A stretch of DNA of 365 nucleotides from Escherichia coli (GTDB lineage: Bacteria > Pseudomonadota > Gammaproteobacteria > Enterobacterales > Enterobacteriaceae), in NCBI RefSeq assembly GCF_003334335.1, contig NZ_QOWQ01000203.1. One strand, given 5' to 3'. A program made the position numbers and the translations under genes. Below the pieces are notes generated by a model, which had not been told where the DNA came from, searched no databases, and worked only from the letters and a program-made list of their open reading frames with translations. Within the stretch, counting starts at the first letter, position 1, and the number at the start of each line of letters is the position of its first letter. Below are positions 1-365 of the stretch, one piece after another.

Positions 1-365
1 AGTCCCCACACCCCGTATGTCTCCACACCATCAGGCAGGGTACTGACCTGTATCCGGTCCGGCGCGGGGTGTGCGGTGATGTCCACACTCACCGGCTTAC
101 CGCTGCCGTTAATCAGGTTCACCGTCGATGCACCTGTCCCCGGAAGTGTCACTTCACGGTCCAGCGTCAGGGTGCGGGTGGCAGCATCGATGGACAGGAC
201 ACGTCCGCCGGTCAGGGTCCCGGCATAGTCGTTATCACAGATTTCAATGATGTCACCGGGTGTGTGCCGCAGCCCCTGAGACCCGAGTGTGAAATCCACC
301 GTCTGCGTTTCCAGCAGTTCGGTCTTTATCACCCACAGCCCGGCACGGTGGGCCTGACCGCGGCT
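1..365 (-). CDS. J: Internal fragment of a lambda-like phage tail tip / host specificity protein (gpJ-family central tail fibre protein); partial at both ends
   Basis: Seen in sequence: the reverse complement read from base 365 gives 121 sense codons with no stop (complement of 365..3), and bases 2..1 begin the next codon. The other two minus-strand frames hit TGA within about 36 and 111 nt. Leucine is encoded almost entirely by CTG, as in well-expressed enterobacterial or lambdoid genes. Recognition from memory, not a database search: motifs such as SRGQAHRAGLW-IKTELLETQTVDF, GDIIEICDNDYAG, TRTLTLDRE and NGSGKPVSV match what I recall of the central region of phage lambda gpJ (about 1130 aa), with many substitutions. 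No start or stop codon lies in the window, so true gene boundaries are outside it. Confidence 0.87.

Follow-up and report, generated by a model that had tools for sequence, protein, structure and literature searches.

The window, by which we mean the whole 365-nt stretch of E. coli DNA analyzed here, derives from the interior of an intact-type J gene, which encodes the tail tip attachment protein (central tail fibre) of a lambda-like prophage or temperate phage of E. coli; we put the probability of this assignment at about 95%. Its allele class is almost certainly the one typical of long-tailed Stx-converting phages and of many other E. coli prophages (such as VT1-Sakai, BP-4795, an E2348/69 prophage and the PhiR12 phages). 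The encoded segment differs from lambda gpJ at 36% of its residues. This difference is an old divergence between two allele classes, built up under purifying selection, and most of it sits in an inserted sub-domain that is fast-evolving throughout the J family. The gene, the fold and the allele class are all already known.

Identity of the window and its domain layout

Six-frame translation of the 365 nt revealed that frame -1 is open across all 121 codons and that the other five frames contain stops. The minus-strand peptide of the window is SRGQAHRAGLWVIKTELLETQTVDFTLGSQGLRHTPGDIIEICDNDYAGTLTGGRVLSIDAATRTLTLDREVTLPGTGASTVNLINGSGKPVSVDITAHPAPDRIQVSTLPDGVETYGVWG. With phmmer this peptide aligned without gaps to residues 440-559 of the lambda gpJ chains PDB 8IYK_J (E 1.3e-49) and 9E7M (E about 1e-49), and it matched positions 440-560 of the NCBIfam lambda_TipJ profile with 232 bits, a score to be read in the light of the fact that the peptide alone is a fragment and cannot reach the whole-protein cut-off of 1950 bits. 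Its PHROG matches are 'central tail fiber J' and 'tail protein and host specificity', and gpJ is the annotation of nearly all matching copies in genomes. In the J gene numbering of STEC2018-607 the window corresponds to gene nt 1318-1682.

The HDIV domain of gpJ contains an extra beta-sandwich (residues 483-569) placed between strands beta24 (477-482) and beta25 (570-578) and missing from T5 pb3 (PMC10721106), and the same decoration of the HDIV loop has been named the OB domain (PMC11101478). On the basis of the domain boundaries given in these structure papers, the window was split into an HDIV-core part (gpJ 440-482) and an insert part (483-560), which leads to the following features:

3..365, minus strand: in-frame internal fragment of gene J, 121 codons, gpJ residues 440-560 (open frame, phmmer and NCBIfam profile)
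1-2, minus strand: first two bases of codon 561 (frame)
237..365, minus strand: C-terminal part of the HDIV core (hub domain), finishing with strand beta24, gpJ 440-482, the conserved part, inside Pfam Phage-tail_3 (PMC10721106, PF13550)
3..236, minus strand: most of the HDIV beta-sandwich/OB insert (full insert 483-569), gpJ 483-560, the variable part (PMC10721106, conservation)

Plus-strand ORFs of 22-50 aa in the window were rejected as artefacts that arise opposite a GC-rich coding sequence, and both strands of the window gave no Rfam match at E<=1. The sole repeat is a 12-nt imperfect inverted repeat within the coding sequence (window 4-15 and 65-76, 92% complementary, 49 nt apart), which is consistent with chance level in GC-rich DNA.

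Divergence from lambda gpJ and selection

Pairwise alignment of the window with lambda gpJ is gapless, far exceeds what chance would produce and gives 77 identical residues out of 121 (63.6%); at the nucleotide level, 245 of the 365 positions are shared with lambda J (67.1%; NC_001416). The substantial divergence suspected in the sequence-only reading of this DNA is therefore real. The lambda gpJ reference used by that reading, with a warning that it might contain errors, proved to be accurate, and all seven blocks that it cited (HRAGLW, IKTELLETQTVDF, EICDNDYAG, TGGRVL, TRTLTLDRE, GSGKPVSV and PDGVETYGVW) are found in the frame -1 translation. The likeness to lambda gpJ (NP_040600; PDB 8IYK, 8IYL, 8K35, 8XCG, 8XCI and 9E7M) over residues 440-560 thus comprises a gapless alignment, all landmark motifs and the same position in the protein. 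The two parts differ in their distance from lambda: the HDIV core is 84% identical, the inserted beta-sandwich 53%. The alignment across 483-560 is gapless and collinear even at this 53% identity, which suggests that the present allele would also carry the HDIV-inserted beta-sandwich, and the 64% identity to lambda gpJ over the window points to a similar fold and tail-tip role.

To place these values in the family, we compared 10 J homologues, namely this allele, lambda, Fels-1, SPN3UB and mEp554 together with those of Mannheimia, Klebsiella, Acinetobacter, Erwinia and Stenotrophomonas phages. Mean pairwise identity in this set is 51% over residues 440-482, similar to the flanking hub segments (48% and 47%), and 32%, with alignment gaps, over residues 483-560, which are about as variable as the FNIII-1 domain (27%). 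Distant J-like PDB proteins align to window residues 1-65, 1-76 or 1-95 only, and many distant phage matches end at about window residue 56-100. Pfam recognizes no family over residues 493-608 of the J protein of STEC2018-607, Phage-tail_3 covering 331-492 and the next family starting at 609. The excess divergence is thus located in a sub-domain that is variable in every lineage. Consequently, the premise that the divergence affects a normally conserved central region holds for one third of the window (440-482) and fails for residues 483-560, which make up the other two thirds.

The differences from lambda are distributed over codon positions 1, 2 and 3 as 35, 19 and 66. Nei-Gojobori dN/dS values versus lambda are 0.08 for the core (440-482) and 0.29 for the insert (483-560), both approximate because dS, at ~1.2-1.4, is near saturation. 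Among prophage alleles, dN/dS is 0.12-0.18 for the window and 0.15-0.27 for the insert. Both parts are under purifying selection, which is relaxed in the insert. Diversifying selection was rejected, dN/dS being <0.3 everywhere, and neither dN/dS nor the codon positions of the substitutions showed any sign of pseudogene drift.

Distribution, full-length relatives and recombination of the allele

Megablast of the 365 nt against 5,426 complete E. coli genomes led to the identification of two genomes with 365/365 matches, STEC2018-607 (NZ_CP075697) and NCTC9112 (NZ_LR134079). Fifteen genome records matched at >=99% nucleotide identity, 1,189 at 95-99% and 666 at 90-95%, so that 1,204 records in total reached >=95%; only 34 fell at 80-90%. 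A window-type match is present in 1,892 of the 5,426 genomes (median 2 copies, maximum 11 per genome) and the corresponding lambda segment in 4,434, which indicates that E. coli carries two abundant J classes. Sequence related to J occurs in 4,488 of the 5,426 genomes, with a per-genome median of 3 places and a maximum of 15. Phage records with >=90% nucleotide identity number 149, mostly Stx1a-, Stx2a- or Stx2c-converting phages and also VT1-Sakai, BP-4795 and PhiR12/PhiR5. Amongst these phages PhiR12_2, whose record describes an isolated phage and gives E. coli K-12 MG1655 as the host, is 99.2% identical to the window in nucleotides and 100% in amino acids. No J allele at 80-90% amino acid identity to the window was found in the phage records. 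In this segment the lambda-type and window-type alleles look discrete despite frequent recombination inside each class.

These counts put the earlier suggestion of a distinct lambdoid lineage in perspective. It stands in the sense that two major J classes co-circulate in E. coli and the window falls into one of them, but the sense is a mundane one, as the allele is common. The unusualness implied by that suggestion does not survive the 100% matches in two genomes and the ~1,200 records at >=95%; near-identity to a common prophage J allele, which the sequence-only reading had itself named as evidence against its proposal, is what these matches amount to. In the prophages and phages VT1-Sakai (AP000400), BP-4795 (NC_004813), E2348/69, PhiR12_2 (PV340550), STEC2018-607 and NCTC9112 the window segment is 93-100% identical in nucleotides and 94-100% in protein, with no substantial difference inside the window.

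The J protein of STEC2018-607 (1231 aa), which holds the 100%-identical window, scores 2321 bits against the NCBIfam model NF049904 (lambda_TipJ, 'phage attachment tail tip protein J'), above its curated cut-off of 1950. Over its residues 1-1000, Pfam places PF24801 at 86-207, PF13550 at 331-492, PF24421 at 609-712, PF24489 at 714-816 and PF09327 from 944. The resulting architecture, FNIII-A_GpJ / Phage-tail_3 / Ig_J / Ig_J_second / Phage_Tail_Tip, is the one expected for the lambda TipJ family. The gene lies in a complete late module of lambda type encoding head decoration, major capsid, FI, tail tube, the G/T chaperones, tape measure, M, L, K (C40 peptidase), I, J and Lom, together with the side-fibre genes, and the order L-K-I-J is also seen in NCTC9112, PhiR12_2, VT1-Sakai and E2348/69. 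This full-length relative shares with lambda both the Pfam architecture and the L-K-I-J-lom-stf neighbourhood. Its amino acid identity to lambda gpJ is 68% overall and, in 60-residue bins, 70-90% over residues 1-480, 57% at 481-540 and 39-50% near the C-terminus. It differs from lambda by ~99 extra residues in the shaft and by its C-terminal part. The last ~250 residues, being 39-50% identical, do not match a lambda-like (LamB-type) C-terminal receptor-binding domain, so that the use of LamB cannot be assumed for this allele.

The extra stretch in the shaft occupies residues ~839-937 of the STEC2018-607 protein (L001:13198-13494), corresponds to lambda ~809-861 in the alpha-helical shaft, and is also present in JNEC-KY208. 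Its Pfam matches are weak and coiled-coil-like only. If helical, it would make the central fibre shaft noticeably longer; the J proteins of NCTC9112, E2348/69 and BP-4795 are of intermediate length in this region. Directly 3' of the STEC2018-607 side-fibre genes (L001:18020-24365) are genes for a YadA-like adhesin, a hypothetical protein and an S6-family (SPATE-type) serine protease autotransporter. These genes may be prophage-linked virulence cargo or simply part of an adjacent chromosomal island.

In two of the relatives the J gene is interrupted as deposited. In PhiR12_2 (PV340550; L004:1684-5213) J is annotated as 954 aa. Behind it, in another frame, lies a second ORF of 175 aa whose end coincides with that of the NCTC9112 J; one base is missing in a G-run (alignment column ~3072), either through a homopolymer sequencing error or as a real frameshift. 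PMC12315714 was rejected as the publication describing the PhiR phages because they are nowhere mentioned in it. In VT1-Sakai (AP000400; L005:1682-5154) a 1-nt deletion (alignment column 1110) splits J into two overlapping ORFs, annotated 'truncated protein by a mutation', and this J is a defective copy of the allele class of the window.

An alignment of eight J alleles over their first 3 kb was scanned for informative sites. STEC2018-607 J is closest to that of JNEC-KY208 over gene nt 1-600 (95-99%), and from nt 1942 onwards the two are 100% identical. Between nt ~1200 and 1941 it is 99-100% identical to NCTC9112, while the identity to JNEC-KY208 falls to 89-97%. In this comparison 48 consecutive informative sites (nt 1212-1894) favour NCTC9112 and the next 176 (nt 1930-2991) favour JNEC-KY208. 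The switch is highly significant (Fisher p = 2.5e-37), and the two-breakpoint chi-square was reached by 0 of 200 permutations. The window (gene nt 1318-1682) lies wholly within the resulting ~0.7-kb recombination tract. Alleles that carry the window block have total J lengths of 1231, 1176, 1157 and 954 aa, and they differ both upstream (gene nt 1-600) and downstream (from ~nt 1940). The tract and the varied allele lengths indicate that the J gene is a recombinational patchwork subject to modular exchange. Such a patchwork is what lambdoid tail genes usually look like where a genome has several homologous prophages, and it is not a lambda/non-lambda hybrid. The mosaic J gene proposed earlier is thus borne out in that a recombination tract covers the window, but the exchange took place among closely related prophage alleles and is routine. 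Genomes hold a median of 2-3 J copies, and homologous recombination between prophages of the same genome shuffles blocks of J, the window being contained in one of them. Chi sites (GCTGGTGG) were rejected as a cause of the breakpoints, as none is present in the window, the J gene, the 24-kb locus or lambda J.

Structural role of the segment and alternative explanations

As part of the tail tip, a lambda TipJ protein is expected to be trimeric and necessary for adsorption and DNA ejection, and lambda host-range mutations are known to map to the C-terminal end of J. By homology to the lambda tip, three J chains would build, together with gpL and gpI, a conical hub that closes the tail tube. To this hub the window segment would supply the last HDIV strands and most of the beta-sandwich/OB decoration in the HDIV loop. 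HDIV would continue the tube under gpM, and the role of the segment would be structural. Receptor recognition would take place ~500 or more residues further towards the C-terminus, outside the window. As the window encodes scaffold and not the receptor-binding surface, it says nothing on host range, and the caution of the sequence-only reading that the segment permits no such inference was justified.

HDIV and the HDI of gpL form a pseudo-hexameric ring through which the gpM ring is connected to the trimeric HDIII-HDII portion of the cone. Once the C-terminal receptor-binding domain has engaged its receptor, the fibre is rearranged and the FNIII strings come apart, and an outward swing of the hub domains opens the channel (PMC11101478). 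The HDIV fold continuing the tail tube is also found in four-hub-domain baseplate hubs such as T5 pb3 and RcGTA gp15, but T5 pb3 is without the beta-sandwich of gpJ 483-569, which fills two thirds of the window (PMC10721106). PMC10721106 and PMC11101478 give no function for this beta-sandwich, and PMC11101478 was the only paper found in a full-text literature search that combined gpJ, OB domain and HDIV. Docking of the side tail fibres to the inserted domain, or co-evolution with it, was considered and rejected since the side-fibre collar of Ur-lambda is at the gpV/gpM junction and not on gpJ (PMC12617516).

Could the window come from a genuinely new J lineage, or from a lambda/non-lambda hybrid missing from databases? 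Its identity of only 64% to lambda would fit such an origin, but we discard it outright in view of the 365/365 matches in two genomes, the >=95% identity in ~1,200 records and the complete amino acid identity in PhiR12_2. An origin in a decaying, non-functional prophage remnant, with the differences from lambda reflecting pseudogene drift, has in its favour that defective prophages are common in E. coli and that the J genes of VT1-Sakai and PhiR12_2 are annotated as truncated and as a shortened ORF, respectively. It is nevertheless extremely unlikely: the 121 codons contain zero stops, the substitution pattern is that of purifying selection, 100%-identical copies reside in full-length J proteins of 1231 and 1176 aa with complete tail modules, and the 99.2%-identical copy in PhiR12_2 comes from a phage deposited as an isolate whose host is K-12 MG1655. 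The open frame speaks for these 121 codons, as the integrity of the whole J gene lies beyond what a 365-nt fragment shows and some relatives, such as VT1-Sakai, are frameshifted.

A further alternative attributes the divergence of residues 483-560 to diversifying or adaptive selection on an exposed sub-domain with a lineage-specific function, for instance weak glycan binding, that bears on adsorption or host range. The insert is indeed a decoration absent from T5 pb3 (PMC10721106). It is also much more variable than the surrounding hub, and the alleles in phage records form two separate classes, the range of 80-90% amino acid identity being empty. We nonetheless regard adaptive divergence as highly improbable because the dN/dS of the insert, at 0.29 versus lambda and 0.15-0.27 between prophage alleles, is well below 1 and third codon positions dominate the differences. 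The known location of lambda host-range mutations at the C-terminal end of J argues in the same direction, as do the attachment of the side fibres at the gpV/gpM junction (PMC12617516) and the absence of any function for the insert in the structure papers (PMC10721106, PMC11101478). That the two beta-sandwich classes, the lambda type and the Stx-prophage type, reflect an undescribed lineage-specific function such as binding of an envelope component or matching of a tail-tip partner is very unlikely; if it were true, the two classes would not be interchangeable.

In all, distance from the lambda reference alone is no sign of novelty for J, of which E. coli genomes carry two abundant classes. 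Comparison with lambda only overstates how unusual an allele is, and its frequency in the prophage pan-genome is the proper baseline. What looks most diverged within the window is an accessory domain of the tail-tip hub that evolves fast, and the finding as a whole matters little.
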